Below are positions 19,944 through 43,399 of a stretch of DNA of 51,008 nt, piece after piece (position 1 is the stretch's first letter; each line of letters opens with the position of its first letter). Source of the stretch: Acetobacteraceae bacterium (GTDB lineage: Bacteria; Pseudomonadota; Alphaproteobacteria; Acetobacterales; Acetobacteraceae); the NCBI GenBank assembly GCA_025352995.1, contig JANXRN010000330.1, forward strand, positions 1 to 51,008, written 5' to 3'. The notes below the pieces were generated by a model. The model saw only the letters and a list, made by a program, of their open reading frames with translations, had not been told where the DNA came from and made no database searches. Made by a program: the position numbers and the translations under genes.

Positions 19944-20213
19944 TCAGCTCCGCCACACGGACCAGAAATGGGCAGCCGCAAACCCTCCCGCTGCCGCCAC
20001 AGTGCGCCCGACCCAAAACCCGAGCTTCGCCGCCCCCATTCCGACGGCCAACTTCTCAGCCATTTCATCAATTTTCACTGTCATGACGCCCAGATGGGCA
20101 TCGAATCTCCTGAGCGCCGATTCAACCCCCTCCGTCTTAACCTCAACCCTCGCAACACGCTCGCGCAGGTCGGAGATATTGGCCTGCAGCTGTTCGTCAC
20201 CCATGCTCTCCAT
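19944..20213 (-). CDS. Small coiled-coil protein with a C-terminal hydrophobic segment (holin-like candidate or fibre accessory)
   Basis: Starts 1 nt after the tailspike stop (TAGGATG). It has an N-terminal heptad-like region and the segment GMGAAKLGFWVGRTVAAAGGFAAAHFW. Confidence 0.45.
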   Translation of the reverse strand: MESMGDEQLQANISDLRERVARVEVKTEGVESALRRFDAHLGVMTVKIDEMAEKLAVGMGAAKLGFWVGRTVAAAGGFAAAHFWSVWRS

Positions 20214-20214
20214 C

Positions 20215-23200
20215 CTATTGCGAGTACCATTTTGTTGCCGACATTTTACGAAATATCTTTGTATTATTTCCGCCCATCGAAAATGGATTATTGACTAATC
20301 CTATGTCAATACTCTGTCCGACTGGTGGAAAAACAAGTAATGCAACCGAACTTTGAGCATTTCTAATTGCAATTTCGCCACCCACGCCCGGATCCGGAAG
20401 CAAAACACTGTTCGCTCCGGAAGCGACCGTAGCAATTTCGTTGAAGTCACTCGTCAGTGCTGCTGCCGATCCCTGCGCAGTACCAGCGGCGCTCAAATTC
20501 GTACCAACCGAGCGCCTTGAACTTCCCGTAAAAATTGGGGCATTTGCGAAAACCAAGCCCGAAGCACTCAATGTATCGTTGCTTAATACTAGGCCACTGC
20601 CGACCGCGATCGTTCCAAATGTTGTACCGTCTGATTTGACAATCCCCACCGTTGTGACCGCAGGTAACGGCGGTAGCGATAAAATATCGGAGAACCGGCC
20701 TGTGGTTGCAACTGTCGCCAGGCCACCTATGTCAGATCCCGACAGAACGACGGTCCCGGTTCGTCCGGCAACAGTTGAAACGACTGAAGCAGCGCCGCTA
20801 AACTTTTCCCATTTTGAACCGTTGAACGCAAGGTGATCGCCAACAAGCCACTGCGAAATTCCGTCTAAAGCGGTCGTGCCTGCCACTGAAACGGTATAGT
20901 AAAATCCCTTGCTACCCACGCTCGATGTTAGGCCAGGAATGTTGATTATGGCGTCCCAATTCCCCTGAAAATTCAGGGCACCCTGCACTGCAGCCGGAAT
21001 CTGAAAGATCGGAACTTTTGTTGTGCTATCGAGCGCCGCATACCCGTTCGCCACCCCTTTGCGAGAAAGGCTTTCTGCCCCATTAATGTCCGCGGACGTT
21101 AGAACGCGAAAAGTAGGGGCCGAAGCACCAACGATAGGTCCCGCCAGAACCTCCGACGCGCCAGCAGATCCAGTTATTACCAAAGAGGCGGCTGTTACTG
21201 TTCCCGTTATAAAAGCTTGCCCAACACTAAGCGACCCAGTGCCACTAAAGTCCTTGCCTGAAATTAAGCCATTTGGCACGGATAGCGTCGCACCACTTCC
21301 TGCACTTCGCGTTAAAGTCAGTTGACCGGCTGACTGCATTTGGAGTCTAACTGAGTAGCCTGCCGAGACGTTCGCGCCTTGGAAGTCTATATAGGATCCA
21401 GCGGCACTACCGAGGTAACCTAGCGCTATGTTCGGGTTCGTTCTATCCGACCCAATTGTGACGCCTCCACTGCCGACCACCAGCGAATCGGTTGTGGTTA
21501 GTGGGCCCGTGATCTTCGCAGAAGTCAGCGATTGGACAAAAGCGGTACCTGGACCAAATAAAAATGGTCCAGCATCATCAGTATAAAAAGGACCGACGAA
21601 TTTCGACGGCGGAACCCAAACCGATGCAAATTGGCTGCTAATATAAACCTCGCCCTGGACACTGTATTTGGACGGAACGTCAAATACGCTCTGTGCTGCC
21701 CCGGTTGTGGAATACCATTCAGGCGTTTCAAATTTTGCACCAGTAATGGTGACGGTATTGACCTCTGAAGTAACTGCAAATAAATTTTTTGCCTGGACAA
21801 TGTGATCACGAATCAGCAACCCCGACAATTTCGGGTTTGCATAACCGGTCAACAAAAACACCGACGTCGGCGCAATTTCCGCGTGCACATCCCATTCAAG
21901 CAGCGACTGAGTGTGACCTGACCCAAGGAGATCGAGGAAGCTCATGACGACCGCCGGGACGCCGGACTGCACTGCAACGTATCCGCCGCGATATGAATGA
22001 CGATGTGTAGCCGCCATCCACACTGCAGGACCGCCGCCGGTCATCTCCAATACCGGTTCGATAAACATATTTTCATTGAAGCTCATCGCGGCGTTGGGCG
22101 AACGGGCCACAGGCACATACTTTGACACAATAGGCCAAAATCCGGTGGCGTCCTGAATAAGAGCGTAACACCATTTTGGCCCAATGTAGCGATTTACGAC
22201 CTTTAGGCTGGTGAATACCGAGGTTTCTGACCCGGTGTTGAAAACGCAAGATTGTGTGAAATATCCGGTTATGGTAACATTTTCAACAGCGTTTTGTGGA
22301 TGCCCTTGATTGTCAATATACAAGCCGAGCTGAAGCCCTATCAGAGCGGGATTATTCTGGGAACCGGAATACAAAATTAAATCTTTGATTATGCAATTTT
22401 CAATGCCTAGCGCGTCAATAACTGCAAAACCTTTGACATTAGATATAATTTGCGACCCTTGACCATCAAAAGTAAAATATTTGAATCTGGTAAAATCTAT
22501 GGTTTCATTTACAATGTATCGACGTCCGAACCCTAAAACCCAGGCCTGTTGAGCGCCATTCATGCTGCGCTGCTGTCGAAGCCATACACTATATGATAAA
22601 AATGCCGCGGTATCATCTGTTATACCGTCGCCAACAGCACCAAAATCGTGTATTGTTTTCAATCCAGCATTAACATTAATAGTTCCATCTGGAAGTATTG
22701 TTAGGCCAGAGCCAATTTTTACATTTCCCACTGTCACCGCTGTAGCAACAGGGAGCAATGGCACCACATCACTTGCGGTGATTTGACCGCCACCAATGAC
22801 CTGCCCCTTCGCGTTGATTTGAACTTTCGAGAAGGTGCCGGCGGTAGTCACAGTCGCTAACGTGGTCGCGATTGAACCAACCCCGGCGCCGACGATATCG
22901 CCAGTAAAAGCGATAGGCTGACCTCGGGCGACATTGGCTTGAACGAACGCAGTAGTGGCAAGCGCAGTTGATGAGTCTAGCGTCGGGCGAGTTGGCGCCG
23001 TTGGGGTTCCGATGAGCGCGGGAGAGTCGATCACCGCGACCCAACCTGTATCCAGGTGAAGTCCGCCCGCGTCCAAAAGGAGGCCCGCCCCAACCTGAAT
23101 GGGCTGAGGAGCGCCCGCGACGGCAGTGTTCGCTCTCCCGACCAGAGTGTTGGGGGCAAAGGTCAAGCGCGGCTGAGTTTGGGCAAGCAGCGTCGCAACA

Positions 23201-23292
23201 TCCGACACAAAAGCAACGCCGTCCTTCTCAATAAAAATTTGATCTGTAGGGTCAATAACCGTTGCTTGTGGAAGCTGCTGAAGCGTTGGCAT
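20215..23292 (-). CDS. Tailspike/tail fibre with pectate-lyase-like right-handed beta-helix (depolymerase) domain
   Basis: N-terminus MPTLQQLPQATVIDPTDQ.. is paralogous to the neighbouring spike. Also has DFGAVGDGITDDTAAF (Pectate_lyase_3-type motif) and C-terminal GNWDA..G..W fibre repeats. The gene is visibly lower in GC than its surroundings. Confidence 0.8.
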   Translation of the reverse strand: MPTLQQLPQATVIDPTDQIFIEKDGVAFVSDVATLLAQTQPRLTFAPNTLVGRANTAVAGAPQPIQVGAGLLLDAGGLHLDTGWVAVIDSPALIGTPTAPTRPTLDSSTALATTAFVQANVARGQPIAFTGDIVGAGVGSIATTLATVTTAGTFSKVQINAKGQVIGGGQITASDVVPLLPVATAVTVGNVKIGSGLTILPDGTINVNAGLKTIHDFGAVGDGITDDTAAFLSYSVWLRQQRSMNGAQQAWVLGFGRRYIVNETIDFTRFKYFTFDGQGSQIISNVKGFAVIDALGIENCIIKDLILYSGSQNNPALIGLQLGLYIDNQGHPQNAVENVTITGYFTQSCVFNTGSETSVFTSLKVVNRYIGPKWCYALIQDATGFWPIVSKYVPVARSPNAAMSFNENMFIEPVLEMTGGGPAVWMAATHRHSYRGGYVAVQSGVPAVVMSFLDLLGSGHTQSLLEWDVHAEIAPTSVFLLTGYANPKLSGLLIRDHIVQAKNLFAVTSEVNTVTITGAKFETPEWYSTTGAAQSVFDVPSKYSVQGEVYISSQFASVWVPPSKFVGPFYTDDAGPFLFGPGTAFVQSLTSAKITGPLTTTDSLVVGSGGVTIGSDRTNPNIALGYLGSAAGSYIDFQGANVSAGYSVRLQMQSAGQLTLTRSAGSGATLSVPNGLISGKDFSGTGSLSVGQAFITGTVTAASLVITGSAGASEVLAGPIVGASAPTFRVLTSADINGAESLSRKGVANGYAALDSTTKVPIFQIPAAVQGALNFQGNWDAIINIPGLTSSVGSKGFYYTVSVAGTTALDGISQWLVGDHLAFNGSKWEKFSGAASVVSTVAGRTGTVVLSGSDIGGLATVATTGRFSDILSLPPLPAVTTVGIVKSDGTTFGTIAVGSGLVLSNDTLSASGLVFANAPIFTGSSRRSVGTNLSAAGTAQGSAAALTSDFNEIATVASGANSVLLPDPGVGGEIAIRNAQSSVALLVFPPVGQSIDIGLVNNPFSMGGNNTKIFRKMSATKWYSQ

Positions 23293-23473
23293 GATTAACC
23301 TTTTGATGTTACACGATACTGCTGAATTTTCCACACATCACACATTTACAAGAATGATATTTGTGTTTATCCTTGCATATCTGGTTGCCTATTATTTAAA
23401 ACTATAGAGTTTAACCAACAACGACAGATTTGGAGGTTGGCCTGTTTGGGCACGCACAACATTCCGTTACGGC

Positions 23474-25825
23474 TTAAACGACCGCAATCCATCCGGAACT
23501 ACCAACACCCGACTGCTTCAGCCAGAACGTTGCGCCCGCTCCACCATTCAAGTTTCTATAGTCCGATCCCGGCGACGCCGACCGTATCCCTTGCGGTGAT
23601 CCCCGGCCGACCAACGATTGTGCTCCAACAGGTTCGGCTTCGCTGGATATGCGTACAGCACCTGTGCCGGAAGGTCGCAGGATGACATCTGCATTACCCA
23701 CGGAGCGAATGAGCGCACCACCGAGTTGGTCTGTTGTGAACCAATCTGGGATGCTGAAGCTACTTGCCCGCCAGGTGCCCCAGATAGCCCTCCATTCGAC
23801 ATCCGAGTTGGCCACAACATCGAGATCCGCGAGCGTCCAGTTCTCCTGCAGTGGAAAGGAAGCGCCGCGCGCGAACGCGACCGCTGTATTACAGGTCACC
23901 CGCAGGCTTCTATTATCCGACAGCGGGGGGGCAGCATAACCGATTGCAGTTGCCCCAGTTCCGTTGCCCGAAATTGATATTGCAACTTCATTACCAACTT
24001 CGCCGTATCCTGCGCCTTGGGCGCCGACTGTAATCCCTACGACCACGCCATCTTTCAAGATTGCCTGCGCACTCGCGCCGGTGCCCGATCCACCGATGGC
24101 AACCGAGGCATTGGTATAACCTATCCCGCCAGACTGTACCTTTACGAAGCTAAGTTTCCCGGAGGCCGCAGCCTGGGTGCTTGAAATCATGGACTGTACG
24201 CCTGACGGCGCATAAGTTATCAGAACACTATCGATAATATCTGGATATACTAATGTATTTCTTCCCGCTATCACGACAGGATTTATTGTAAATCGTTTGG
24301 AAAAATTGAAGCTATTTCCCTCAACACTACAACTGTCAGTTTCATTGCGTAGGCATAGCTGTGCACCGCCCGCTCCAATGAATTCATTCCGCGCGATGAG
24401 GACATGCTGCGGTCCATCACGGAGCCAAACACCCCAGCCGCCAATGGGCATCGAAATCCAATTATCGGTGATAGCAGTGTTACGGCTGGCGATGCCAAAG
24501 GTTTGCGTTAAGCCATCGGCCTCGACATTATTAATAACAACTCCCCAACCTGTGCAATCCTGCAGGTAATTGCCGGTCACTCTAATATCAGTACCACCGC
24601 CCGCATTTATGCCGACAAGCGCGCTTTGAATTTGGTTACCGCTAACATCGCTCGCGAGCGATCCGCCGATATCGATTCCGTAAGTGCCAGCACCCGAGAC
24701 CATATTACCTGCCACGCGGGAATATTCAATATTTGCCAGAATGCCTGCGCCGCCGACTAATCCTGTTCCGTTGTTGAACAGCAAGTTTCCAGTGATAGAA
24801 ACAGATTTCCCAGCCGCTGCAATACCGTAAATCGAGTTTTCGTGGCAGATATTTCCGTCGATTAAGATCGCGATTGCATCAGGATTGGCGTTTCCCCATA
24901 CGGGTGGCTGGGCGTTGGTTGCATTGAAATTTCCAACATTTATCCCACGCTGATTGGCCCAGCATCTGTTGCCAGAGATCTGAACCAAGGAAACTTTCCG
25001 TTGAAAGGTTGGGTCGTTGAAGTCGATACAAAGGCCATATCTGCCGTTGTCGTGCGCCTGGCAATCATTGATGCGCGCACCGGTACAGGCTTGCATCCAA
25101 AGGCCATGGATGGCGTTTCCCGAAAAAGTGCATCCATCAACAACGTGTGTCGTGGCAACGCCTCCGCCCTGGATTACCAGACCGCTGCCCTGAACTGCGC
25201 CACCTGCATTTAGGAAACTACAGGCCTCAAATCTGGCCGAGGAACATACACCGGCTACAAACACGCCCCAACTGTCCTGATTTACCGCAGGGCCGTTGGC
25301 ATCAAATACGACGCCATGCGCGTAGAAAGCCGCGCCTTGGAGGGAAATCCACGCGCCGGAACCGACTTGTCGCGCACGGCGAAGAATGCTTACACCTGGT
25401 ACACCAATCAGCGTGCAGGACGCCTGACCGACCGTCCATTGGCCGTTCAGGATATAGGTTTTCGCGCCAAGCCGAACTGGCTTACCGGACGCAATCGCCG
25501 CGGACAATGCAGCGGTATCGTCCGTTATGCCATCGCCGACTGCGCCATAGTCCTCCGCGTGCACCGCATCAGGCATGGCTGGGACCGTCGCCGACAAAGT
25601 CCCGGACGCAAGAGAGAGGCCGGCGCCGATTGCAATAGGTTCAACTGCACCAACGCCGGCTGTGGTTCGACCTATCAATCGAGCCTGATTGAGCAAGAGC
25701 TGAGACTGCACTCCGGCGAGTAATTGCGCGCGCGTAGCCTTTCGGGCTACGCCGTTTTGGCTGAGCATAACCGCGTCCGCGTCGCTGGTTGCAAGCGCGG
25801 TCTCCAGTTGGTCAATGGTTGGCAT
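23474..25825 (-). CDS. Tailspike with pectate-lyase-like beta-helix domain
   Basis: N-terminus MPTIDQLETALATSDADAV.., EDYGAVGDGITDDTAAL, repeated beta-helix rungs, and C-terminus GSPQGIRSASPGSDYRNLNGGAGATFWLKQSG.GSSGW. Confidence 0.8.
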   Translation of the reverse strand: MPTIDQLETALATSDADAVMLSQNGVARKATRAQLLAGVQSQLLLNQARLIGRTTAGVGAVEPIAIGAGLSLASGTLSATVPAMPDAVHAEDYGAVGDGITDDTAALSAAIASGKPVRLGAKTYILNGQWTVGQASCTLIGVPGVSILRRARQVGSGAWISLQGAAFYAHGVVFDANGPAVNQDSWGVFVAGVCSSARFEACSFLNAGGAVQGSGLVIQGGGVATTHVVDGCTFSGNAIHGLWMQACTGARINDCQAHDNGRYGLCIDFNDPTFQRKVSLVQISGNRCWANQRGINVGNFNATNAQPPVWGNANPDAIAILIDGNICHENSIYGIAAAGKSVSITGNLLFNNGTGLVGGAGILANIEYSRVAGNMVSGAGTYGIDIGGSLASDVSGNQIQSALVGINAGGGTDIRVTGNYLQDCTGWGVVINNVEADGLTQTFGIASRNTAITDNWISMPIGGWGVWLRDGPQHVLIARNEFIGAGGAQLCLRNETDSCSVEGNSFNFSKRFTINPVVIAGRNTLVYPDIIDSVLITYAPSGVQSMISSTQAAASGKLSFVKVQSGGIGYTNASVAIGGSGTGASAQAILKDGVVVGITVGAQGAGYGEVGNEVAISISGNGTGATAIGYAAPPLSDNRSLRVTCNTAVAFARGASFPLQENWTLADLDVVANSDVEWRAIWGTWRASSFSIPDWFTTDQLGGALIRSVGNADVILRPSGTGAVRISSEAEPVGAQSLVGRGSPQGIRSASPGSDYRNLNGGAGATFWLKQSGVGSSGWIAVV

Positions 25826-25827
25826 CG

Positions 25828-26328
25828 TTAACTCCCAAGAAGGATGGGATTGCCGTTCTGATCGGTCACAATGGCGCCTGTGCTTGTCGTGAGGATCGAC
25901 GCAGGCACGGACCCACCAGCTAGTGTCTGGACCGGTAGTAGAATAGAGCGGCGGAGGGTTCGTCCGCTATCCGTCGATATCGTAACCTGCACGACGTAGA
26001 TCTTTCCGGCGATACCACCCGCTATCCATAGGACGGCAATGCCGCCATCGACGGCGACGCGGGTCGCAACAATGTCATTGACGCCGTTGGGTGTGGTGAC
26101 GACATTGACAACTGTTATGCTGTCGCCCTCATTACCCAGAATTGCCGGTCCGATGTCGATTTCATAGTCCAAGACATCCGACGGATCTTTTTCCGGCCAA
26201 ATCAAAACCGATGGACTGCGACCAGAGCCCCCCCTTGGCACCGGGGAGAAACCGTCAAGTACGACCCGGCGCGCGTTGCTCGGCCGCCAAACGGTTCCCG
26301 ATTGGGCAATATTGGATTGAATAGTCAT
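25828..26328 (-). CDS. Phage hypothetical protein, possible fibre-tail adaptor
   Basis: Lies between the fibre genes. The WPEKDPSDVLDYEIDIG motif resembles adaptor-like proteins, but the recognition is weak. Confidence 0.45.
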   Translation of the reverse strand: MTIQSNIAQSGTVWRPSNARRVVLDGFSPVPRGGSGRSPSVLIWPEKDPSDVLDYEIDIGPAILGNEGDSITVVNVVTTPNGVNDIVATRVAVDGGIAVLWIAGGIAGKIYVVQVTISTDSGRTLRRSILLPVQTLAGGSVPASILTTSTGAIVTDQNGNPILLGS

Positions 26329-26340
26329 TGCGACCCCTAC

Positions 26341-27600
26341 CTAATACTCAATGATAACCAATCCATTTCCGCCAGATGCACCCGGAAAGTTTCCACCGCC
26401 GCCCGCTCCACCGCCGCCTGGGCTCGCGCCAGAGCTTGGTAGGCCACTCGATGCAGCGCCACCTCCACCGCCGGCGGCACCGGCGGCACCATGTCCACCA
26501 AAGCCGTTCGGCCCCGCGCTGAAGCCGGCGTTACCCGCGCCACCTGTCATCGAAATTGTGGCACCAAAGCCACTTCCAGCAGCCCCTGAATTGCCTTGGC
26601 CACCCGACAATGAACCAGCCCCCCCATGGCCGCCGGTTGCGCCAAAGGCCCCGCCGAAGCTGGACGATCCGCCATCTTGCCCATTGTTGGCGCTGGCGCT
26701 GCCTCCAGCATTGGAGCCCCCCTGCCCGCCGGAACCAACGACGATGAGAATGATTTGGCCTCCGGTGACTTGCTGAATGGCCTCGGCATATCCACCGCCA
26801 CCACCGCCACCACCGCCACCTTGCCCAGTGTTGCCCCCCCCACCGCCGCCGGCGCCATGGACGCGGACCTTGACCAAATTCACGCCTTGGGGAACGACAA
26901 AGTTGTCAGACGCGGCGAACTGCTGGAGAGACGAAAACCCGGGGCGCAAGCTCGGGAGTTTAAATGGAATGATTGGCTTAGCCGGGAAGGTCAAAATATC
27001 GGCACCACCGACCGCCACCTGACCATAGACAGTCGTGATAAGCGCAAGACCAATCCAGCCGGGCGCCACGGACGGAGCAACCTGGCTTCCCGTGGTTGCC
27101 GGTGCGCCTGCGCGCGTTCGCACTGCGACTGTCTGCAACCTAGCTGTGGGTTGCGGGGTCCCCGAATTATGGGGACCCAGCCAGGTTTGAGTAGGTGCGG
27201 CGGCATTGTAGTACGGCAGAACCATGGGGCCGTCGTCGGCTTCTTGAAACGCGGCCTCGACGATCCAGACAGTTGATTGGCCCGCGATAGGCGGTGGTGT
27301 GACATGAAGCACCGCAGCCGCACGGTTGATGCCCATCTTCACAATCGGCGCAAGCCCATCGATCGGTAAGGTGCCATACGTCGAGTTGTCAACATTTTCT
27401 AAGGACGTGATACAGCCAGGCGCCACCAATACTGATAAGCTTGGCGGTGTAGTGGACAGGATCGACAGCCCATCTACAATCGGCGCCGTACCGAGGACGG
27501 AGCCCATCAGCGTACCTAAGGCAATCATGATATTGCGATTTGTATTCAAAATATCGCTGTCGAGCGGGATACCGCCGGGGTAGACGATGGTGCGATCCAT
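26341..27600 (-). CDS. Tail fibre protein with an extended C-terminal glycine-rich domain
   Basis: The ATG at 27600 follows GAGGAA and gives MDRTIVYPGGIPLDSDILNTNRNIMIALGTL (a fibre-type N-terminus). The last ~190 aa are poly-Gly/GGxGG repeats ending LVIIEY. Confidence 0.7.
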   Translation of the reverse strand: MDRTIVYPGGIPLDSDILNTNRNIMIALGTLMGSVLGTAPIVDGLSILSTTPPSLSVLVAPGCITSLENVDNSTYGTLPIDGLAPIVKMGINRAAAVLHVTPPPIAGQSTVWIVEAAFQEADDGPMVLPYYNAAAPTQTWLGPHNSGTPQPTARLQTVAVRTRAGAPATTGSQVAPSVAPGWIGLALITTVYGQVAVGGADILTFPAKPIIPFKLPSLRPGFSSLQQFAASDNFVVPQGVNLVKVRVHGAGGGGGGNTGQGGGGGGGGGGYAEAIQQVTGGQIILIVVGSGGQGGSNAGGSASANNGQDGGSSSFGGAFGATGGHGGAGSLSGGQGNSGAAGSGFGATISMTGGAGNAGFSAGPNGFGGHGAAGAAGGGGGAASSGLPSSGASPGGGGAGGGGNFPGASGGNGLVIIEY

Positions 27601-27812
27601 GGCTTCCTCACTAAATAGGGACTGGTGCCTGCCAAGCGAGCGGCCGGACGGTGCGAGCGGAGGCGGCTTGCGTGGGCGGTTCGTGTTGGACGGCAGTTCG
27701 GCTTCAAGGGCTTGCCAATTTCGATATTCGTAAAATGAGCCAGCGAGCGTCATCGACCGACGACTACGGCGCGATCCGTTAAAGCTACGGTGTTCGCACG
27801 GAGAACAGGGTG

Positions 27813-28394
27813 TTAAGATTCAATACGAACCCATACTGTTGTCGCAATTGGAGCAACATCAGCTGCCGCAGACAGTATATCGAAGTCCGAGAGTTCGGCA
27901 GCCGCCGGTGTGCCGGGAAACGGGCGATAGGCAGTGAGAAGAATTTGATTTGGCATTCGAAGACTGCCCCAACGTCCGGCAACACCATAACCACCTAGCT
28001 GGTTCCAGATACCTGTATCGGCGGGGCGACTAGGTTCGAATATATCAGGGAGCCGACCGGTTGGATCCTGCACCCCCTGCGAAAGTGCATCCCGTGTGGC
28101 GCGCGGACGAAAAATCTCCCGAAGGATCGCTGCACGAAAGGCTTGATCAGACTGCCCGGCACCGCGAACAACCCTTGAGCCGAAGAAGTCAGCCGCAGCG
28201 ATATCGAGAAATACTTCACTTGCAGTAGCAATACGTGCCTGCTGACGGACTGCACCGAGCAATTCATAGGCCCAGGTGGATGTGGACCCCAATCCGGTCA
28301 GCACACCATCCAGTATCGGCGTGTTGTCGGCGAACCATCGCGCAGGCAATACCATCTTCAAGCGGCGTATCATATCATCGATGCTACCGATCAT
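27813..28394 (-). CDS. Baseplate/tail protein (P2 gpI or Mu gp48-like)
   Basis: Sits immediately after the baseplate J gene, with typical size and sequence LPARWFADNTPILDGVL. Confidence 0.55.
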   Translation of the reverse strand: MIGSIDDMIRRLKMVLPARWFADNTPILDGVLTGLGSTSTWAYELLGAVRQQARIATASEVFLDIAAADFFGSRVVRGAGQSDQAFRAAILREIFRPRATRDALSQGVQDPTGRLPDIFEPSRPADTGIWNQLGGYGVAGRWGSLRMPNQILLTAYRPFPGTPAAAELSDFDILSAAADVAPIATTVWVRIES

Positions 28395-29896: not shown

Positions 29897-29899
29897 ATG

Positions 29900-32434: not shown

Positions 32435-32542
32435 CGCAGACCTAGCCTCCCATTTTGGCAGCACTGTATTCGGTGCTGGCGGTCTTCAAACGATCAATAA
32501 TGCGCACGCCCCTGCCAGGCCCGACTGACCGCCATACCCGGC

Positions 32543-34402: not shown

Positions 34403-34415
34403 TTGGGTTCTCCGT

Positions 34416-34844
34416 TCAAATTCGCTTGCGGGAGCTTGCAAAGAATTCCAATCGTTGCTTCACACTCTGGTCGCCCCGCCATGTGCCAGCCTGGCTAAGC
34501 TTGAAAACTGCGCCATCATACTGATACGTGCTGGTGGATCCATCGGTTTCGCTGACATACTGATAGAGCGATCCGACCGGAATGGCACCTCCTGCGTAAT
34601 ATGTTTGTTCCATTTTAGCAATTAAATCATCAACTGCTGACGATCCGCGTTCAATCTCGAAGTATCCCTCCCATCCCTTGGGAAGTTCGGCGCCGAGCTG
34701 CGTACCGTCGATGCGGTCAATTCGAACAGCAGCTGTGCGTTGTCGACTGTCGAACCCCGTCACGTGGGTCAGATCGAGACGACCGAAGGGACCCATGACC
34801 ACGAGTTGGCAATCGCGTCCGACTGAAAATGCATTTATCGACAT
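34416..34844 (-). CDS. Contractile tail tube protein
   Basis: 142 aa, immediately downstream of the sheath gene. Confidence 0.75.
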   Translation of the reverse strand: MSINAFSVGRDCQLVVMGPFGRLDLTHVTGFDSRQRTAAVRIDRIDGTQLGAELPKGWEGYFEIERGSSAVDDLIAKMEQTYYAGGAIPVGSLYQYVSETDGSTSTYQYDGAVFKLSQAGTWRGDQSVKQRLEFFASSRKRI

Positions 34845-36431: not shown

Positions 36432-36581
36432 CTAACCCCCCTGTTGCGGAATGATGGAAACCCGAACTACGAACCTGCGATCCTCGGACGCAAGCAACTG
36501 CTCGATAGCTCCGGGATCTGTAATGACTTCACCCTTTGCATATGTCGCGAACGCGGCGACGACCACGAGATAGATGTTCAT
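36432..36581 (-). CDS. Small phage hypothetical protein (49 aa)
   Basis: The ATG at 36581 follows GGAGAA and lies just after the upstream stop at 36598. Confidence 0.35.
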   Translation of the reverse strand: MNIYLVVVAAFATYAKGEVITDPGAIEQLLASEDRRFVVRVSIIPQQGG

Positions 36582-36597
36582 ACGTAATATTTCTCCG

Positions 36598-37428
36598 TCA
36601 GGCCAACAGGGTTTGTACTGAGCCGGCATCGGCCGGGGTGAAGTTGAGATTGCCAAATATCATTGTCGGAAGCATCTCGGTAATTGTTGTTGGGTATTCG
36701 ATATCAAATATGATGTCCCGGCGATATAGATTTGCATTCAGACTCTGGTCGAAAACCTTGGTCGTCGCGCCGCGAATGAAGCCACTGGTGCGGTCGGGTA
36801 GGGCGAGCCAATTACTGTCGGACAGCCCCCGGTCGATCAAACCAGCGACTGTGTCACGCAACGCGGCGCTTGGGCACCAAATCGTGGCACGGAACCCCTG
36901 TCGTTGCCGACGGGTTTCGCGTTGAACGGTCTGATCTGCAACGACCCTGCCGATGACGGCGCGGGCGTTGGGGATTGTGATACTTGCACCAACAACACTG
37001 ACCAGCCTTCTGGTTCGGAGATAGGCCCCCAGGGTCGCCGCGACCAGTTCAAGCGTTTCCCCATCCTGAACGCGATGCACGACGGCCATATTGTCCACTA
37101 GAATGCCTGCCACCTGGCCGGCGCCGATCACCCCTGCAAAGGTGACCGTGGTGCCGGCAACGTCAACGATAAGGGTCGGGACATTGCGACTGACAAGTCT
37201 GGGCTCATCAGAATAGCGGGTTGTGTCTTGGTGACCGCTTCCATCTGGGAAGATCGTAATATTTATGACTTCGGCGGCAAGATCGGCGTTAAGGGCTGCC
37301 GTGGAGGGCCATCCTCGGAATATGCGGCATCGGCTGCCGATCAGACTTGGGGCGTCCGCCCCTTGGGGATAGAGGATTGCCGCAATGGCGGTTACCAGAG
37401 CAGCTTCAACATCGGATTGATCAGCCAT
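36598..37428 (-). CDS. Phage structural hypothetical protein (neck or tail completion region)
   Basis: Lies between the head genes and the sheath gene and is translationally coupled. Confidence 0.5.
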   Translation of the reverse strand: MADQSDVEAALVTAIAAILYPQGADAPSLIGSRCRIFRGWPSTAALNADLAAEVINITIFPDGSGHQDTTRYSDEPRLVSRNVPTLIVDVAGTTVTFAGVIGAGQVAGILVDNMAVVHRVQDGETLELVAATLGAYLRTRRLVSVVGASITIPNARAVIGRVVADQTVQRETRRQRQGFRATIWCPSAALRDTVAGLIDRGLSDSNWLALPDRTSGFIRGATTKVFDQSLNANLYRRDIIFDIEYPTTITEMLPTMIFGNLNFTPADAGSVQTLLA

Positions 37429-37429
37429 G

Positions 37430-38098
37430 TCAGGTTGCTATCTCCTTGGCAATTACGCGCCAGCCAAGGCTGCTGAGTTCAGCGGCTGTTACAATCGCGC
37501 TCCGCCCCTTCTCATCAGTGATGCGATCGTTCGTTCGCACAACCAGATCAGCTATATTCGGTAGCAATACCTCCCAATTTCCCGGCACGACCGATGCCGG
37601 CAGGTCCAGCGGGTTCAGTCCCGTCCCCATGGAATGAGAAACAGCGGCCGGCCAGCCCGTAAGGATTGAGATCGACGTCAGTGCCCCGCCACCTCCGTAG
37701 GCCGCCGCACCCGTGGTCGTTGAGATCCGCATGCGCGCAACCGATACCGTGGCCGACGTTTGCACACAGAGCGATGGTAGCAACGATTGTTGTGCTGCGA
37801 TAAACCAAACAGCTGCGTCGCCGTTACCGCGGCGTGACGGCTGACGAACGATATAGTCGCCCGGTCGCGTGTAGGCAGTATCGAACAGGCCCTGCCAGGT
37901 CACATGACCATAGCTCACAGGAGACTTGGTGCGCCCGTCCAGCGGCAAAAATGCCGCACGGAGCCGCAGAATATGGTTGCGTCCATCAATCGGATCAGTA
38001 TTACCCCGCGGGCGGTAAACATCGCACCAGTCCCCGATGGAACGTGCCGCGATGCCGTTGCCACGGCTAATACGATCATTTAGCAAATTGACCTGCAT
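37430..38098 (-). CDS. Phage structural hypothetical protein (head-tail joining region)
   Basis: ATG at 38098, 1 nt after the upstream TAA. Confidence 0.5.
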   Translation of the reverse strand: MQVNLLNDRISRGNGIAARSIGDWCDVYRPRGNTDPIDGRNHILRLRAAFLPLDGRTKSPVSYGHVTWQGLFDTAYTRPGDYIVRQPSRRGNGDAAVWFIAAQQSLLPSLCVQTSATVSVARMRISTTTGAAAYGGGGALTSISILTGWPAAVSHSMGTGLNPLDLPASVVPGNWEVLLPNIADLVVRTNDRITDEKGRSAIVTAAELSSLGWRVIAKEIAT

Positions 38099-38099
38099 C

Positions 38100-38477
38100 T
38101 TAGACCACCAAAGTAGGTTGGCGCGACGCAAGCCCCGGACCGGGCGGGATGCCTAGAAATCCGCACAGGCGCCGGCACCATCCGTCGTACAAGCGAACGC
38201 GATCGTCAATTTCATCGCGGTTGCGGGTCCAAACTGCTGCTTGGTCGGTATCAAGATTTTCGCCAGACGCGGGAATGGCTTGCTCCAGACCTGCCAATGA
38301 CGCGAGGTATCGACGCGTAGTCGTTTCCTCGCTGCCGGTGAGGTGCCCTAGGCGAAATTCCAGAAGCCCATAGACCTGATGGAAGCGCCAGCCCTGAAAG
38401 CCTTGATTGCCTGCACCATAGGCCGGGTAGCCGCAGAAACGTCGAATGTCGGTACGTTCGGCTTCAGTGAAGGCCAT
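38100..38477 (-). CDS. Phage hypothetical protein (head completion/adaptor region)
   Basis: 125 aa, downstream of the capsid gene. Confidence 0.5.
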   Translation of the reverse strand: MAFTEAERTDIRRFCGYPAYGAGNQGFQGWRFHQVYGLLEFRLGHLTGSEETTTRRYLASLAGLEQAIPASGENLDTDQAAVWTRNRDEIDDRVRLYDGWCRRLCGFLGIPPGPGLASRQPTLVV

Positions 38478-38554: not shown

Positions 38555-39877
38555 TCAGCCCATATGTTCAATCATCACGCAGCGTTTGAACGCTGCATTG
38601 GTGGCCGTTGGAACCGTGGTCGGATTGGTCGTGGTATCCGATGGCGCCGCAAAGCCACCGATCCAGTACCACGATTGCGCGATGATCTGCTGAAGACGAT
38701 CGATCGGTTCGCGGGTAACCATGGCGACGCCATCAACAATCGAAACGATACTGTCGGATGGCGCAACATCTGCTTGAGCCATGCCGGCAAAATTGCCTTC
38801 AATAAGCGCGCCGGCACCACATACAATCGGCCGGCGGATTACCGCGCCACCACCCGATGGGTGGGCTTGGACATAGGCTTCCGTGGTCGGAATGAAACGC
38901 AGACCCAGGAAATCATTGATCATGCCGCGCTTGAAAACCTGATTTGCCGACGTTGCGCCCACGAAGAGCTGACGGAAGTCATTGTCGGCAAACAATTGGC
39001 GGGCGGAAACCGGATCCAGGTAGCAATTGAAAACACCATCAATTTCCGGCACCGCGTTCTGTCGAAGGGTCGCAACGGCATTGAGCAGCGAGGCCATTGT
39101 CAGGCTATCTCCGGCAACGAGTTGCGCGGTATTGGTACGATTATTCGGTCGCTGGATCGAGCTTGCGGTCGACGCGGTGATCGTGTTCCCAGCAGTCGCA
39201 TCGCTGGTCAGCACCGAGTTACTGAAGGTCAGCGTTCCGGAAATGCCACCCGGCGCAGATGAGATGGTCGGGTTGTCGACAGATACGCCAACCAACAGAT
39301 ACTGGTTGACACCCACCATGACCGTCATCGAAGCGGCGCCGCCCACCGGGGTTTGCACACCGTTGACAAAGACATTCTGAAAGCCCCGCACGTCATCAAC
39401 CGCAACGGTCGGACCAGCAGAACCAAGCGTCGTGCGGACCCGTGTGTTGCCGCCGAAATAGGGCGCAAACAGGGCGTTACGGGCCAATTCATCGAGAGAA
39501 CGGGCCGCCTGCTCGCCATTGATCGTTGCATTGAGGAGAAATTGGTTTGCGATTCCAACCCGGCTGGTGACCATATTGAGATCGGTCGTTGCAGCATAAT
39601 GATTGATTGTGATCGTAAACTGTTCAACGCCATAGCTGGTTGCTGCCAAACCATTATCCAGATTGGTATTGGTTGCGGGTGCCAGAGGAACAGTAACGCT
39701 CGGTTTCAGGCCAGCGCGCGTCTTGGTGAGGGTTTCACCCATTCCCACAGCGAACTCGACACGATCGGCGACGGCGCGATACCCAAGGCGCGACCGCATG
39801 GCCTGCTGGAACTCGCGTTCCAGGAAACCCTGCTGGATGATGGGTTGCAGCGCGGCGGGGAAATTCTGAATGCCCAT
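38555..39877 (-). CDS. Major capsid protein (HK97-fold, scaffold-dependent type)
   Basis: 440 aa, following a scaffold-like gene. No delta-domain-like N-terminus. Composition typical of coat proteins. Confidence 0.7.
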   Translation of the reverse strand: MGIQNFPAALQPIIQQGFLEREFQQAMRSRLGYRAVADRVEFAVGMGETLTKTRAGLKPSVTVPLAPATNTNLDNGLAATSYGVEQFTITINHYAATTDLNMVTSRVGIANQFLLNATINGEQAARSLDELARNALFAPYFGGNTRVRTTLGSAGPTVAVDDVRGFQNVFVNGVQTPVGGAASMTVMVGVNQYLLVGVSVDNPTISSAPGGISGTLTFSNSVLTSDATAGNTITASTASSIQRPNNRTNTAQLVAGDSLTMASLLNAVATLRQNAVPEIDGVFNCYLDPVSARQLFADNDFRQLFVGATSANQVFKRGMINDFLGLRFIPTTEAYVQAHPSGGGAVIRRPIVCGAGALIEGNFAGMAQADVAPSDSIVSIVDGVAMVTREPIDRLQQIIAQSWYWIGGFAAPSDTTTNPTTVPTATNAAFKRCVMIEHMG

Positions 39878-39984: not shown

Positions 39985-40377
39985 CTACCGGATGCCCACG
40001 AGTTCGGCCCTCGCGGCGCGCCATTCAGCATCGGTCATTTCTTTTACGTTTCGTGCCTTGCTGGTCTGAGCAAGCGGCGGCATCGCGGGCATGGATGAGC
40101 TGTCCCCGCCAAAGAGCCAAGGTTTGTTGCGCCGCATATCACGCATCAGCACGGCAGCACCCTTCACTTCGCCTGTCGGATCAAGCTCGACCTGAGCAAA
40201 ATCCACCAGCTTTAGGCCATCAAGATCGATCATACCGGCCCGAAGGGCCTCGGACTTCAGCTCGGCATGTACAAGGCGACGGCGACTGTCGACTTCAAGT
40301 TGGGCGATCCTTAGCTCAAGCTCAGCGGCGCGAGCGGCATAGTCAATATTCGTTGGATCATGTGGCTGTTCGGTCAT
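39985..40377 (-). CDS. Head scaffolding protein (putative)
   Basis: 130 aa, coiled-coil and charged, lying between the portal and capsid genes. Start overlaps the portal stop. Confidence 0.55.
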   Translation of the reverse strand: MTEQPHDPTNIDYAARAAELELRIAQLEVDSRRRLVHAELKSEALRAGMIDLDGLKLVDFAQVELDPTGEVKGAAVLMRDMRRNKPWLFGGDSSSMPAMPPLAQTSKARNVKEMTDAEWRAARAELVGIR

Positions 40378-41765
40378 GCGATCTCCTCGGTATCGATGCG
40401 CAGTAATTCAGTCGGAACGTCTTGGATGGAGTAGACGTCAGCGATTGACCTGACCGCGGTTTCGCGGCTTATGAGCTTGGCATTGATCAGGGTTTGCAGG
40501 GTTTGAGCATCGGCCTGTCGATCCTGAGAGCCAGGCGCGTACCACCGCGGCCAGGACAATGTGATGCGGCTAGTTGGATCCAGCGGCGGCAGCAATTCAC
40601 CGTCGGCGCGAAGCTGGTAAAGGTTGGACGCAGCCACGCACATGCGTGCGAGCTGAAGCATACCCCGACCGTAAGCAACGCGAAGGTTGTCCGCGAGCCA
40701 AATGAGACCTTGGTTCATGAGCTCCAGCGCCCGACCTGACTGGGCGCCGGAGAGGCGTTCTGGGCTGGCACGATTGGCATGCACGCCCTCGAGCGCAAAC
40801 TCCCGGAGCGTACGGACATACTCGATGACCGCTGCGGCGGCGGTTCCGCCGATTTCCAGGAGCTTGGCGTCTCCCTTCTCGGTGACGACGAGCGCGTTGC
40901 CGCCACCGCGAATTATTTCGCTGTCGGCAAATGCAGGTTCTTTGATCAGCAATGTTGGGTCGGAACTATATTTGAGGCCACGGCCAGCTTGGCTCAATTG
41001 ATAGTCAATTTCGATATTGGTTTCGACTGCCGATCTGAAAGTGCAACCGCCATCGATGTCATCCCCGCCTGGCAGATTTCGGATCCATACGATCGGCACG
41101 AAGCCGAGACCGTGTCGCACAGTGCGCGTGCTATCGACAGTCGGGGTCGCATCCCCTGTAGTAGACCAGGGAAGATACCAAGTTTCCGTATCTGAGTCCC
41201 AACGACGCATGAACCAGTAGTGAGCCTGAACATCTGGAACCTCATACCCCATCGCTCGCAGGTGAGAGCCAGAGACTTTGTATTTCTCAATGAGCGAGGA
41301 GAGTTGATCGGGCACCTCCTGATCCCAAGTTGGCGTTAAATATTGCGACTGCAGAACCTTGAAGAAAATACGGCCTTTCAAAACTCGCAGGAGAATCGCG
41401 ACTGACCCAATGCTTCCGCGCAAAGCGGCTTCTTGCATGGTCTGGTTTAAGCCAGCATCACGCGCGATGGCGGCCAGGGCTGCCGAAACAGTTCCATCTG
41501 GGCAGTTATAAGTCGGGAAATGCCCGTCCGAAAAAACGAGCGCCAGACTGTCGTCCACGATGATGCGCGCCATTGGGTAGCGAACACTGGGGCGCCGGAG
41601 GCGGAGTGGGATATAATCACCGTTCGCCGAGCGTTCCTCGTGAAACTCATACGGCAAGACGTCGTAATGAGAACCTTCGAGAACGCGCGATAAAATTTCC
41701 AACCTGTTGGTTCTCGGCAGGTAGGCCTGATCAGGTGGAATGAGGCCGCATATCGTTGCGAACAT
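40374..41765 (-). CDS. Portal protein (SPP1 gp6-like)
   Basis: 463 aa, after the terminase gene. SGAQSGRALELM resembles the portal SGxALK motif region. Confidence 0.8.
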   Translation of the reverse strand: MFATICGLIPPDQAYLPRTNRLEILSRVLEGSHYDVLPYEFHEERSANGDYIPLRLRRPSVRYPMARIIVDDSLALVFSDGHFPTYNCPDGTVSAALAAIARDAGLNQTMQEAALRGSIGSVAILLRVLKGRIFFKVLQSQYLTPTWDQEVPDQLSSLIEKYKVSGSHLRAMGYEVPDVQAHYWFMRRWDSDTETWYLPWSTTGDATPTVDSTRTVRHGLGFVPIVWIRNLPGGDDIDGGCTFRSAVETNIEIDYQLSQAGRGLKYSSDPTLLIKEPAFADSEIIRGGGNALVVTEKGDAKLLEIGGTAAAAVIEYVRTLREFALEGVHANRASPERLSGAQSGRALELMNQGLIWLADNLRVAYGRGMLQLARMCVAASNLYQLRADGELLPPLDPTSRITLSWPRWYAPGSQDRQADAQTLQTLINAKLISRETAVRSIADVYSIQDVPTELLRIDTEEIA

Positions 41766-41929
41766 GATTTCCTTTCAGCCCGCCAGCCTGATTGGCCTGC
41801 GGTCCTTGCGATTTAAAAACAATTTTGATGTTCGGAGACAACTAGAGCGTGATCCGTTCAGTTTGCGCCGACGGATACGCTTTAAATTTTTGCTTTCACA
41901 ATCATCTCTATTTGAAGCCGACCGGCCGC

Positions 41930-43399
41930 CTAGCGAACGAAAATGGGCACCTGAACCCGACGAGAGGGCAGCGCCCCATCCGCCAAAAGTGCGTAGGCCC
42001 GGGATAAAGCATCCACCTGGTCATCCTTTCGACCATGCGGAAAATTTTGCAACTCTTCGAGGAACGCCGCGTTCCACGGCGCCCGCATAAGCGTCATACG
42101 TCCAGCCTCAACCTGGGCCGCGACCGGTGCGGCCCGCGTTGCCTTGGCGCCGGTTTCTGGGGATGCGACAACAGTAAAGCCGTGCAGTTGCGCAGATAGC
42201 CAAGCCACTTGCTGTTTGCCGGCCTGCCCTGGGTCTTGTGGCAAGCCCACTGATACAGAGTTTCCGTCACATTTGGCGGTTGCAACAACAGTTTCACTGA
42301 CAACATGTGGACCCGCACGGAACCGGACAACATCGATGACGTAACATCTCCCATCCAGTGCACGGGCGAGCTTCACGCCGACAGTCCAATCGGGATCGCG
42401 GCCAGCTTCGGGCGCTGTTGCTGCGAGATCCCAGGCACGGACGGCCCTCAAATTCGGCGGCAGGGTATCTGCGATAGTGATCTGCGCGGCGGGAAACAAC
42501 CCTCCTGCCGCAGAAATCGGAGCTTGTTGATAGTGCGCAGCCCAAATCCGAGACCCCACGGTCGCGCGCTTGCGGTGGAGCGCGGCAGCATCTTCCCAAT
42601 CTGCCCAAAGTGGTTCGCCTGGACTGCGACCAAGCGGGTCGCCCGGTTCGGCCAACGCCGGAAGCTTGAGTTGATGCCAGCTATCACCACTGTCGAGCAA
42701 TCGTCCGCCAATGTCATCGTGATGCCAACGGGTCATTATCAAGACTATGCGCCCTTTTGGTTTAAGGCGAGTGATCAACTCCGACCGATACCAATTCCAC
42801 AGGTGGTCGCGGGCCTGGGCACTGTCGGCGTCGGCGTGATTTTTTATCGGATCATCGATCAGAATTAAGTCCGCACGGCGACCTATAACTGGCCCGTGCA
42901 CGCCAGTAGCGAAATAGTCGCCCTTGGCTGTCGTGGCGAAGCGATGGGCCGCGTGACTGTCAGGGGCAAGTCGGTAGCCCAATGGATGTTCATGCTCGCT
43001 AATCAGATTACGCAGCCTGCGTCCAAAGTGTTCGGCGAGGTCCGCCGTGTGGCTTGCCGCTATCACTGACGACCGTGGATGGTGGCGGAACCACCAGGCT
43101 GGGAAAATTGTCGAACTGTAAGTCGATTTGGCACTTCCTGGGGGCATCAGCACGAGGAGGCGGTCGATTTTTCCAGTTGTGACCCTTTCAAGGTGATCTA
43201 GAAGCAATCGATGATGCGGCGCTGGCGTCTGCTGAAGCGGCTTGAGAACAAATTCTGCCCAATTCTCCAGGGTTTCAATGAGTTGAGGGCCAAGCGCGAC
43301 GGTATTCGACGAGATTTCAGCTGCCTTAGTGCGCCGCTTTCGTGGCGGTGGAGCTACCGCAGGAATTTCTGCCGAGTCGACGGAGAGCCGATCTGTCAT
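41930..43399 (-). CDS. Terminase large subunit
   Basis: Walker A-like MPPGSAKST, Walker B LILIDDP, and the C-terminal nuclease motif GRKDDQVDALSRAY. GGGAGGGGAAAG RBS. First gene of the operon. Confidence 0.88.
   Translation of the reverse strand: MTDRLSVDSAEIPAVAPPPRKRRTKAAEISSNTVALGPQLIETLENWAEFVLKPLQQTPAPHHRLLLDHLERVTTGKIDRLLVLMPPGSAKSTYSSTIFPAWWFRHHPRSSVIAASHTADLAEHFGRRLRNLISEHEHPLGYRLAPDSHAAHRFATTAKGDYFATGVHGPVIGRRADLILIDDPIKNHADADSAQARDHLWNWYRSELITRLKPKGRIVLIMTRWHHDDIGGRLLDSGDSWHQLKLPALAEPGDPLGRSPGEPLWADWEDAAALHRKRATVGSRIWAAHYQQAPISAAGGLFPAAQITIADTLPPNLRAVRAWDLAATAPEAGRDPDWTVGVKLARALDGRCYVIDVVRFRAGPHVVSETVVATAKCDGNSVSVGLPQDPGQAGKQQVAWLSAQLHGFTVVASPETGAKATRAAPVAAQVEAGRMTLMRAPWNAAFLEELQNFPHGRKDDQVDALSRAYALLADGALPSRRVQVPIFVR

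Follow-up and report, generated by a model that had tools for sequence, protein, structure and literature searches.

A candidate domesticated, non-autonomous locus for contractile-tailed particles in peat-associated Acetobacteraceae

Contig JANXRN010000330.1 of an Acetobacteraceae bacterium (assembly GCA_025352995.1) was analyzed from position 1 to position 51,008 (51,008 bp, ~58% GC; this whole stretch is called the window, and all positions refer to it) and bears a long phage-like operon for a head and a contractile tail. We consider it fairly probable that this locus is a domesticated, non-autonomous descendant of a temperate myovirus similar to Rahariannevirus and phiKX1, inherited vertically in peat-associated Acetobacteraceae and selected to build DNA-filled heads and contractile tails. 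Judging from its genes, it is best read as belonging to the class of gene transfer agents (GTAs) and PBSX, with its own repressor and a sigma-like antitermination circuit. The layout of the open reading frames (ORFs) and the Pfam/PHROG scans revealed one co-oriented minus-strand operon running from 43399 to 19944, as a preliminary description of the sequence had stated, with 25 genes (26 products, counting a -1 frameshift product) in place of the ~27 reported there. By gene linkage, the element is wider than the operon and would extend over 19944-48479 (~28.5 kb). Gene maps of genomes and IMG/VR loci showed that RlpA-like DPBB, XRE-type HTH, p102 and DUF6362 genes, accompanied in relatives by a small lipoprotein gene, recur beside the large terminase gene (TerL), and because they do so in differing chromosomal contexts they were assigned to the element. 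Window positions 43805-48479 hold these linked genes plus an RTX-like gene and p294. The preliminary description had both borders at cellular genes, which is correct for the left side, where an aldo/keto reductase (AKR) gene belongs to the host, and has to be revised for the right side, where the genes from the RlpA-like one to 48479 travel with TerL.

Inheritance and selection among relatives

The survey of relatives covered one genome per species (134 loci, given below by their L numbers) and 160 loci retrieved from IMG/VR. The capsid is 67-85% identical in ~50 Acetobacteraceae species (Rhodopila, Acidisphaera and many metagenome-assembled genomes from peat and soil) and ~52-56% identical in Gluconobacter, Acetobacter, Asaia and allies. 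In close relatives, found on metagenomic contigs, the shared site was seen one flank at a time. The left flank is shared by L249-L252 (AKR 80-86%), in the order J, p190, fibre, Gp77-like, spike, p1107/1150, p86, AKR, MarR, p422, LexA, two small ORFs, pyrD, HAD, PNP, petC, petB, Rieske and hemF. The right flank is shared by L247 and L248 (capsid 90%) and by L005 (85%), in the order DUF6362, p102, XRE, RTX, p294, RlpA and TerL onward; PALP is located beyond DUF6362 in L005 and L247, and L248 has the same order as far as DUF6362. The left 15 kb of the window consist of core host genes (hflKC, hemF, petB, petC, purine-nucleoside phosphorylase, HAD hydrolase and pyrD). AKR, MarR and S24 are also host genes and remain together in L253/L254, a relative without the cluster. 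This nearest cluster-free AKR relative has a rearranged neighbourhood, and a clean empty site is therefore not demonstrable. It is a more distant relative, and at 11083-16970 it carries giant Hint_2-domain genes (1299 and 622 amino acids, aa) between AKR and MarR.

Compared with L247, every element gene is full length at saturated synonymous divergence (dS 1.4-3), with ratios of nonsynonymous to synonymous divergence (dN/dS) of 0.03-0.2, and TerL, portal and capsid are among the most constrained (0.03-0.05). The host genes PALP, pyrD and AKR have diverged equally to the element (against L247, dN is 0.14 for PALP, 0.15 for TerL and 0.075 for the capsid). Relatives also rank alike by host and by element genes, L249 being closer than L251 and L247 closer than L005. 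The in-frame slippery heptamer of the tail assembly chaperone is kept in 118/118 relatives. Because the site is the same, dS is saturated, dN/dS stays within 0.03-0.2 and the host and element rankings are congruent, these comparisons support a locus that is vertically inherited under purifying selection and is not decaying. Conserved flanks and purifying selection, which the preliminary description had proposed to look for through synteny, inheritance and dN/dS, were thus found among the relatives, and with the intact ORFs and the conserved slippery sites they favor the domesticated, non-autonomous interpretation advanced there.

Similar associations with fixed host genes were observed in other genera. 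In four Rhodopila species, including R. globiformis DSM 161, host tgt and queG abut TerL directly. In at least 13 Gluconobacter species, a related cluster is always established after accD-folC-dnaB, and its identities track those of the flank (folC 76-97% vs. J 71-98%). Every Gluconobacter species genome retrieved (L058-L083) has the cluster, in which TerL is of a different type and is accompanied by an XRE gene, a TerS-like gene (163 aa) and a gene encoding 180 aa. It looks like a genus-wide fixed element that apparently has not been described.

Homologues of the window capsid number more than 2,800 in the database, and the best 120 present 78-94% identity and lengths of 438-452 aa, nearly all being exactly 440 aa. 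The capsid is far more conserved than the neck and baseplate proteins of the same loci (25-60%), an unusually strong constraint for a phage capsid. A second element variant (L245; SRR23617308 contig 1123083) with 90% capsid and 82% TerL identity was detected in the window's own sequencing run; therefore, two related carrier strains or species would co-occur in that one sample.

Some parts of the element are less uniform. The GC content of window positions 20001-25000, containing the distal spike and fibre genes, is 0.48-0.52 vs. 0.55-0.61 in the rest of the operon and ~0.58 overall, and these genes are also the most diverged part between close relatives. Low GC and high divergence together suggest exchange of a receptor-binding module. 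In the window lineage, L005, L247 and L248, the module of XRE/RTX and p102/DUF6362 (45380-48479) is inverted, which places the RTX-like gene and p294 between the regulatory module and RlpA/TerL. Most other lineages have these two genes, p102 and DUF6362, oriented toward TerL (compared in L013, L015, L021, L022, L087, L091 and L111).

Particle genes and missing phage functions

All operon genes described here are on the minus strand. The phages closest to the locus are those of Rahariannevirus (Ralstonia phages Raharianne, Hyacinthe and Albius) and the Komagataeibacter phages phiKX1/phiKX2. TerL (41930-43399) contains the Terminase_6N/6C domains, matches phrog_38 (E-value = 1.7e-93) and has a strong ribosome-binding site; tblastn showed it to be non-homologous to the TerL of Hyacinthe and phiKX1, and its best match in the phage database is phiAO1 of Acetobacter (47%). 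The portal (40374-41765; SPP1_portal, 5e-11) is 52% identical to that of Hyacinthe. A scaffold-like protein (39985-40377) has a weak Phage_scaffold match and is syntenic with Hyacinthe 4969-5562 (50%). The major capsid protein (38555-39877; phrog_1357, 8.6e-35; named DUF4043 in the sources) presents 58.7% identity with Rahariannevirus (Hyacinthe, Raharianne and Albius) and 51.5% with phiKX1/phiKX2. The region 36432-38477 encodes three conserved head-completion or neck proteins of 125, 233 and 276 aa (phrog_14539, phrog_14605 and phrog_13532), syntenic in Hyacinthe and phiKX1, and a 49-aa ORF. A sub-lineage (L019, L020, L030, L016 and L041) has two extra genes (~215 and ~226 aa) between TerL and portal. 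In L016 and L019, an ORF of 80-120 aa is located directly upstream of TerL, and the 87-aa homologue of this ORF in L040 carries 'APYVHP', a motif that recalls small terminases.

The tail sheath (34857-36428; phrog_23, 1.4e-39) is 57% identical to that of Hyacinthe and 50% to those of phiKX1/phiKX2, and it is followed by the tail tube (34416-34844; phrog_12993, 1.4e-42), identified also by this position. The tail assembly chaperone (33906-34441; phrog_20383) carries a programmed -1 frameshift signal, G_GGA_AAC, at 34082, and its -1 frame is open from 34106 to 33906. Next is p112 (33460-33798), a small conserved tail protein in the same position as Hyacinthe 13233-13721 and phiKX1 31914-32429 and called also in L004 and L247. 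The slot of the tape measure (32543-33460) is occupied by a 305-aa Pro-rich protein with no family match. In all window-type relatives (clusters TMP and c37; L007-L054 and L165-L244), the protein in this slot is 300-460 aa long and Pro/Ala-rich with conserved N- and C-termini, and for that reason a truncated tape-measure pseudogene was rejected. The genes at the tape-measure position of Rahariannevirus and phiKX1 encode 636-742 aa. The slot protein is probably non-helical, and its shortness points either to a short tail (~46 nm if the protein is helical; compare the 47-nm tail of phiAO1) or to an extended polyproline-type ruler.

Downstream, two baseplate hub accessory proteins of 246 and 72 aa (31493-32464; both phrog_21362) show a split that is identical in phiKX1. 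The baseplate continues over 28396-31512 with a gpD-like protein of 376 aa (phrog_52), spike V of 168 aa (Phage_base_V, 1.8e-09), a W/gp25-like protein of 123 aa (phrog_120) and J of 380 aa (Baseplate_J, 1.1e-31). The protein p193 (27813-28394; phrog_26379, 1.4e-51), with a role in baseplate or fibre attachment, occupies the gpI position. The fibre module (20215-27753) comprises a Gly-rich fibre of 470 aa (Gly_rich_2), a Gp77-like adaptor of 166 aa (Gp77, 2e-19), a beta-helix spike of 783 aa (Beta_helix, 1.2e-19) and a distal fibre of 1039 aa (phrog_13892), and its gene order is conserved in 39-75 IMG/VR loci. The last gene of the operon (19944-20213) encodes an 89-aa protein with a coiled coil and a C-terminal transmembrane helix; it gave no family match, has an 86-aa counterpart in L249-L252 and is a holin/XhlA-like candidate.

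The functions of an autonomous phage were searched for across the 51 kb. No integrase, recombinase, excisionase or replication family was detected in any window ORF scanned, no tRNA was found in the window and no att-like direct repeats bracket the cluster, in agreement with the preliminary description. The absence of a small terminase (TerS) noted there also stood: two related TerS profiles (Gluconobacter-type and Hyacinthe) gave no match against six-frame window ORFs, and tblastn of all Hyacinthe and phiKX1 ORFs against the window matched structural genes only, with no early, lysis, TerS, TerL, DnaB or integrase match. A 56-aa ORF at 43513-43683 was considered as TerS and rejected, being located upstream of the conserved late promoter in a stretch that is not alignable among relatives. 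The window has no canonical lysis cassette, and to that extent the description was accurate; it had passed over two candidates, namely the holin-like last gene and the RlpA-like hydrolase, either or both of which may serve particle release. The prohead protease was likewise missing from the window, as noted before, and none is annotated in Hyacinthe either; a protease-free, scaffold-dependent head is a trait common to Rahariannevirus and not a loss. The contiguous integrase, att sites, replication genes, TerS and lysis genes of an intact temperate prophage are, in sum, not found in the window, where host genes flank the element on either side, as they do, seen one flank at a time, in close relatives.

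The relatives presented a similar picture. The 114 ORFs located upstream of TerL in 21 species belong to 75 families, the 25 commonest of which include no integrase or replication family; the families seen there are those of host genes plus DPBB, HTH_3 and DUF6362. Among 56 ORFs downstream of the fibres in relatives, there is one lysozyme, one insertion sequence transposase and no integrase. An integrase or replication module with att sites contiguous with the cluster, which would have spoken for an ordinary prophage, was consequently seen neither in the 51-kb window nor, as regards the integrase, among those 56 ORFs. None of the 160 retrieved IMG/VR contigs with the module exceeds 35 kb.

Late promoter, leader and regulatory genes

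The preliminary description had placed an AT-rich region of ~470 bp before TerL. The low GC content (45.7%) was found as described, in a gap of 405 bp. The gap contains a late-operon leader element on the minus strand (43417-43510), delineated by nhmmer, alignment and RNAalifold, which precedes TerL in ~35 loci, is present as a single copy in the window (nhmmer) and is conserved even where the TerL of relatives is only ~60% identical. In the leader alignment, an A-tract (43510-43501) is followed by a -35-like hexamer, CTT(G)CCC, and a spacer with a conserved GCCCC, then by a -10-like TATA(A/T)A (43476-43471) and CATGATC. A GC hairpin follows at 43457-43427 (dG ~-26 kcal/mol), then a T-rich tract, a ribosome-binding site, AGGGAGGGG, and the ATG of TerL at 43399. 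RNAalifold on 20 sequences gave 12 pairs in the hairpin, three of them with compensatory double changes, and the leader had no Rfam match. In lambda PR'-tR', too, a terminator-like hairpin comes immediately after the promoter; by this analogy, the promoter and leader hairpin suggest antitermination-type control of the operon. Some relatives have a second copy of the leader and promoter, either before the scaffold gene, which in loci showing both genes places it after the portal, or as a duplicate before TerL (L118 28-117 and 3156-3242; L102 7695-7784; L100 1958-2035; L157 179-250; L101 2200-2256; L134 5265 and 5429).

Candidates for the control of this promoter lie on the right side of the element. 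The DUF6362 protein (47997-48479, plus strand; 160 aa; PF19889, 3.4e-10; phrog_6836) is a candidate sigma-like late activator or antiterminator. It has more than 2400 homologues, with 60-93% identity among the 120 best listed, and is linked to TerL in many loci. Its C-terminus resembles sigma region 4 by sequence. The AlphaFold2 model (pLDDT 75.8) gave weak Foldseek matches, none with E<=0.001, and the top rows of the PDB and viral lists are mostly sigma factors, isolated region-4 domains and phage sigma-like/DUF1492 proteins, with one Q antiterminator; the model thus offers a weak indication that the fold resembles sigma-like proteins. No match was found among GenBank phages or in a PDB sequence search. 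DUF6362 was also considered as TerS, as it adjoins the 5' side of TerL in L043 and L044, but the modeled fold matches sigma-like proteins and not TerS, making this assignment less likely.

Directly upstream, p102 (47685-47993, plus strand) encodes a small protein co-transcribed with DUF6362 and a candidate partner regulator, as it is found beside DUF6362 in 11 genome and nine IMG/VR loci. It has no family or PDB match, and its C-terminal motif is common to the Gluconobacter-locus family c39 (hhalign probability 93%). An AT-rich divergent control region (47582-47684; GC 0.30) separates it from an XRE/Cro-CI-type HTH gene (47207-47581, minus strand; HTH_3, 2.6e-11; phrog_8/phrog_4), the repressor candidate, which is divergent from p102/DUF6362 in every locus with the module. 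Control appears to be encoded by the element itself, with XRE, p102 and DUF6362, the last of these sigma-like, working on the conserved promoter and hairpin.

Three further genes belong to this side. The RTX-like gene (45380-46933, minus strand) encodes a Ser/Thr/Gly-rich protein of 517 aa with a weak HemolysinCabind match. It is located downstream of the XRE gene, as it is in L005, L013, L015, L021, L022, L091, L161 and L247, has a dN/dS of 0.08 against L247 and is followed by a strong terminator at 45359-45326. The fast-evolving p294 (44397-45281, plus strand) has no family match and is present in L005, L247 and L248 at 27-48% identity. The RlpA-like DPBB lytic transglycosylase (43805-44362, plus strand; DPBB_1, 2.6e-21) is divergent from TerL and adjoins it in 10 genome and 10 IMG/VR loci of differing chromosomal context.

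Wiring to LexA or CtrA, which the preliminary description had proposed from candidate modules flanking the operon, found no support. Scans for GTTC-N7-GTTC and TTAA-N7-TTAA gave no LexA or CtrA box in the control regions of the element. The window has five GTTC-N7-GTTC boxes vs. 1.4 expected; they cluster around host lexA (15.0-16.0 kb), with others within the AKR and portal genes, and the sole TTAA-N7-TTAA (CtrA-like) box is at 18217, outside the element. The host SOS module covers 15079-16775 and includes a LexA-type S24 gene (16128-16775) with a box upstream of it (15951-15965); further boxes at 15079 and 15324 surround small genes at 15106-15456 and 15521-15940. The S24 protein was designated CI-like by PHROG, and a prophage CI was considered and rejected, as it is a host neighbour even in the cluster-free L253, shows 89-92% conservation and is preceded by a GTTC-N7-GTTC box. 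From this context, we identify it as the host LexA, outside the element.

Interpretation and comparison with known systems

The genes can be arranged into a proposed mechanism. To judge from the divergent layout, the XRE repressor (47207-47581) would hold the p102-DUF6362 operon off. Once it is relieved, DUF6362 and p102 would activate the promoter at ~43471-43510 and permit read-through of the hairpin at 43427-43457, turning on the 25-gene operon; promoter, hairpin and their conservation are observed, and which protein acts on which site is our proposal. Scaffold-dependent, protease-free heads would then assemble, to be filled by TerL working without a dedicated sequence-specific small terminase. 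Because such a terminase is missing, packaging would probably be a non-specific headful process taking up available DNA, mostly the host chromosome, although the lack of TerS is only suggestive with regard to random packaging of host DNA. The tail would be built from the genes observed here, with the frameshifting chaperone and the short Pro-rich length protein, and release could be aided by the holin-like last gene and the RlpA-like murein hydrolase. Finally, the fast-evolving module of fibres and polysaccharide spike would bind related cells, followed by either DNA delivery, as in a GTA, or killing, as in PBSX. By gene content, these two functions fit the locus equally well. We put forward, tentatively and as a possibility well short of an expectation, that the loci form a new family of contractile-tailed GTAs, independently domesticated, across Acetobacteraceae (peat/Sphagnum lineages, Rhodopila and Gluconobacter), packaging host DNA without a dedicated small terminase and switched by an element-encoded repressor and a sigma-like antitermination circuit analogous to RogA/GafYZ, homology between the two circuits not being known.

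Several points weigh against a domesticated, non-autonomous locus of this kind. Particles, packaging and transfer in the window lineage are deduced from sequence alone. Only 51 kb of the genome are visible, and early genes or TerS could lie elsewhere. The control regions have no LexA or CtrA box, the U-tract of the hairpin is modest and its terminator role is one that we infer. The fold evidence for DUF6362 is weak, with no Foldseek match at E<=0.001, and the protein could be an unconventional small terminase, given its place directly 5' of TerL in L043 and L044. Among the related phages, phiKX1 packages its own circular 53-kb genome (PMC8566455), and some metagenomic relatives may be active phages, as a run of small genes on the opposite strand follows the fibres in L197, and in one relative that place holds a lysozyme gene. 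Lastly, the module is found in different chromosomal contexts depending on the lineage, which means that the family moved or was re-acquired several times and that there was no single ancient domestication. Because lineages hold the module at different sites with swapped TerL types, past mobility of the family is indicated, and it was probably fixed more than once.

Among the alternatives, a PBSX-like killer survives best, and we regard it as rather unlikely. According to it, the locus is kept because contractile particles kill competing strains, DNA packaging being a by-product of assembly with no productive transfer. The XRE-type repressor, the candidate sigma-like factor and the long operon for head and contractile tail are all seen here and parallel the architecture of PBSX, and the fibre and spike genes are the fastest-evolving and have an atypical GC content, as expected for a receptor module in an arms race. 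However, dN/dS values of 0.03-0.05 for TerL, portal and capsid, together with a capsid 78-94% identical over more than 100 clusters, exceed what a by-product would apparently need, and tailocins, which are pure killing devices, have as a rule lost the genes for the head. A helper-dependent or split mobile element, whose integrase, replication and small terminase would be supplied from elsewhere in the genome or by a co-resident phage, seems improbable to us. It draws on the limited length visible, on the module contexts that differ by lineage as signs of past mobility and on the swapped TerL types; against it, there are no att repeats, the flanking host genes are identical in co-diverged relatives and the window shows no pac, cos or TerS partner. 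The least probable is the decaying (cryptic) prophage that the preliminary description had kept as its alternative, the late half of a temperate phage drifting to loss after deletion of its early region, since, for all that integrase, replication genes, TerS and a canonical lysis cassette are absent, that the regulatory module is inverted and apart from TerL relative to other lineages and that phiKX1 and Rahariannevirus are active relatives, a remnant without function would not keep 25/25 operon ORFs full length at synonymous saturation with dN/dS of 0.03-0.2, an intact frameshift signal and leader, and one gene set at one site across several species.

A domesticated, non-autonomous locus inherited in this way, if confirmed, would be a fresh case of phage domestication, that is, a vertically inherited and strongly selected myovirus-type particle locus in a dominant bacterial family of peat moss, and could point to a main channel of gene exchange, or of warfare between strains, in the microbiomes of peatlands. 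Cultured carriers of related clusters exist, namely Rhodopila globiformis DSM 161 and the Gluconobacter strains (L058-L083). It would also account for the phage-like contigs of the Sphagnum 'core virome', which were reported in all samples of that study, cluster with Raharianne, have gpVWJ baseplate domains, align to genomes of Acetobacteraceae and show no lysogeny module (PMC12142844, 2025). One of those contigs bears DHOD and S24 peptidase genes beside the structural genes, as in the left flank of the window (PMC12142844), and the core-virome contigs almost certainly represent, by these shared genes, the same element family. That study did not settle where they come from or what they do (a temperate phage or a degraded prophage), with synteny, selection, borders and regulation outside its analysis (PMC12142844), and the locus is now characterized much further than in the existing literature. 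A search of the literature on gene transfer agents with Acetobacteraceae or Gluconobacter led to no paper calling these elements GTAs.

Concerning known phages, the module from portal to first fibre is homologous to and syntenic with that of Rahariannevirus and phiKX1/phiKX2 (22-59% aa identity), and these phages are likewise protease-free and scaffold-dependent. They differ in their genomes of 46-54 kb (46 kb in Hyacinthe, Raharianne and Albius, 53 kb in phiKX1/phiKX2) with TerS, lysis and DnaB genes, and an integrase in phiKX1, which have no counterpart in the window, as well as in a non-homologous TerL and tape-measure-position genes of 636-742 aa vs. 305 aa. Mitomycin-inducible myovirus-like particles have been observed in 15/177 acetic acid bacteria (Omata et al., 2021; PMC8566455). 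Such particles, with a 43-nm head and a 47-nm tail, were the source of phiAO1 from Acetobacter (LC644971; PMC8566455), a linear sequence of 34.1 kb without integrase and with host genes at both ends and inside. The ends of phiAO1 (L255) carry sorbosone dehydrogenase and MutT, and genes for sulfurtransferase, peroxiredoxin, SOD and catalase break up the sequence; a 43-nm head hardly seems large enough to hold 34 kb. phiAO1 may be GTA-like, although it has never been analyzed in those terms. Its likeness to the window locus lies in TerL (47%), a Gp77-like protein and the lack of an integrase, the remaining structural genes being unrelated. By analogy, phiAO1 can be regarded as an experimentally seen counterpart, within the same family, of a non-autonomous particle locus and not as a homologue.

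Concerning domesticated systems, the locus is not a tailocin, an extracellular contractile injection system (eCIS) or a type VI secretion system (T6SS)-like device, as it has genes for TerL, portal, scaffold and capsid under strong constraint. To our knowledge, the recognized GTA families are very few and no accepted one has a contractile tail, and we know of no Acetobacteraceae carrying RcGTA-type clusters. The locus resembles RcGTA and CcGTA as an alphaproteobacterial, vertically inherited head-tail cluster without integration or replication genes: no means for autonomous replication, integration or excision was found in the 51-kb window and the relatives, and the comparisons among relatives point to vertical inheritance with purifying selection. 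It differs in that the CtrA and LexA boxes expected from wiring to host regulators are absent from the control regions. It does not belong to the homologous RcGTA-type family, as the structural genes share no sequence homology. RcGTA has a siphovirus-type tail and an HK97-type capsid with a protease, in contrast to the contractile tail (sheath phrog_23) and the phrog_1357 capsid with scaffold and no protease encoded here; RcGTA also has a TerS, and none is detectable in the window. PBSX of Bacillus subtilis is a contractile, chromosomally fixed and non-infectious particle that packages host DNA and is controlled by the Xre repressor and the sigma-like Xpf over one long late operon. The window resembles it in its layout of XRE repressor, sigma-like factor and long late operon, the sigma-like call here being based on weak fold matches. 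PBSX differs in being Gram-positive and sequence-unrelated and in having small and large terminase genes and a lysis cassette (xhlA, xhlB and xlyA), in place of which the window has only the holin-like and RlpA-like candidates. In CcGTA, the repressor RogA controls the two-gene activator GafY/GafZ; GafZ, which carries a sigma-like HTH, contacts the promoter between its -35 and -10 elements and works as an antiterminator (PMC11150451). The window presents an analogous arrangement, with XRE facing the two-gene unit of p102 and the sigma-like DUF6362 and with a promoter followed by a leader hairpin. Together, the leader and the DUF6362/p102 pair would add a second case, apparently of independent origin, of a domesticated phage operon under antitermination-type control.

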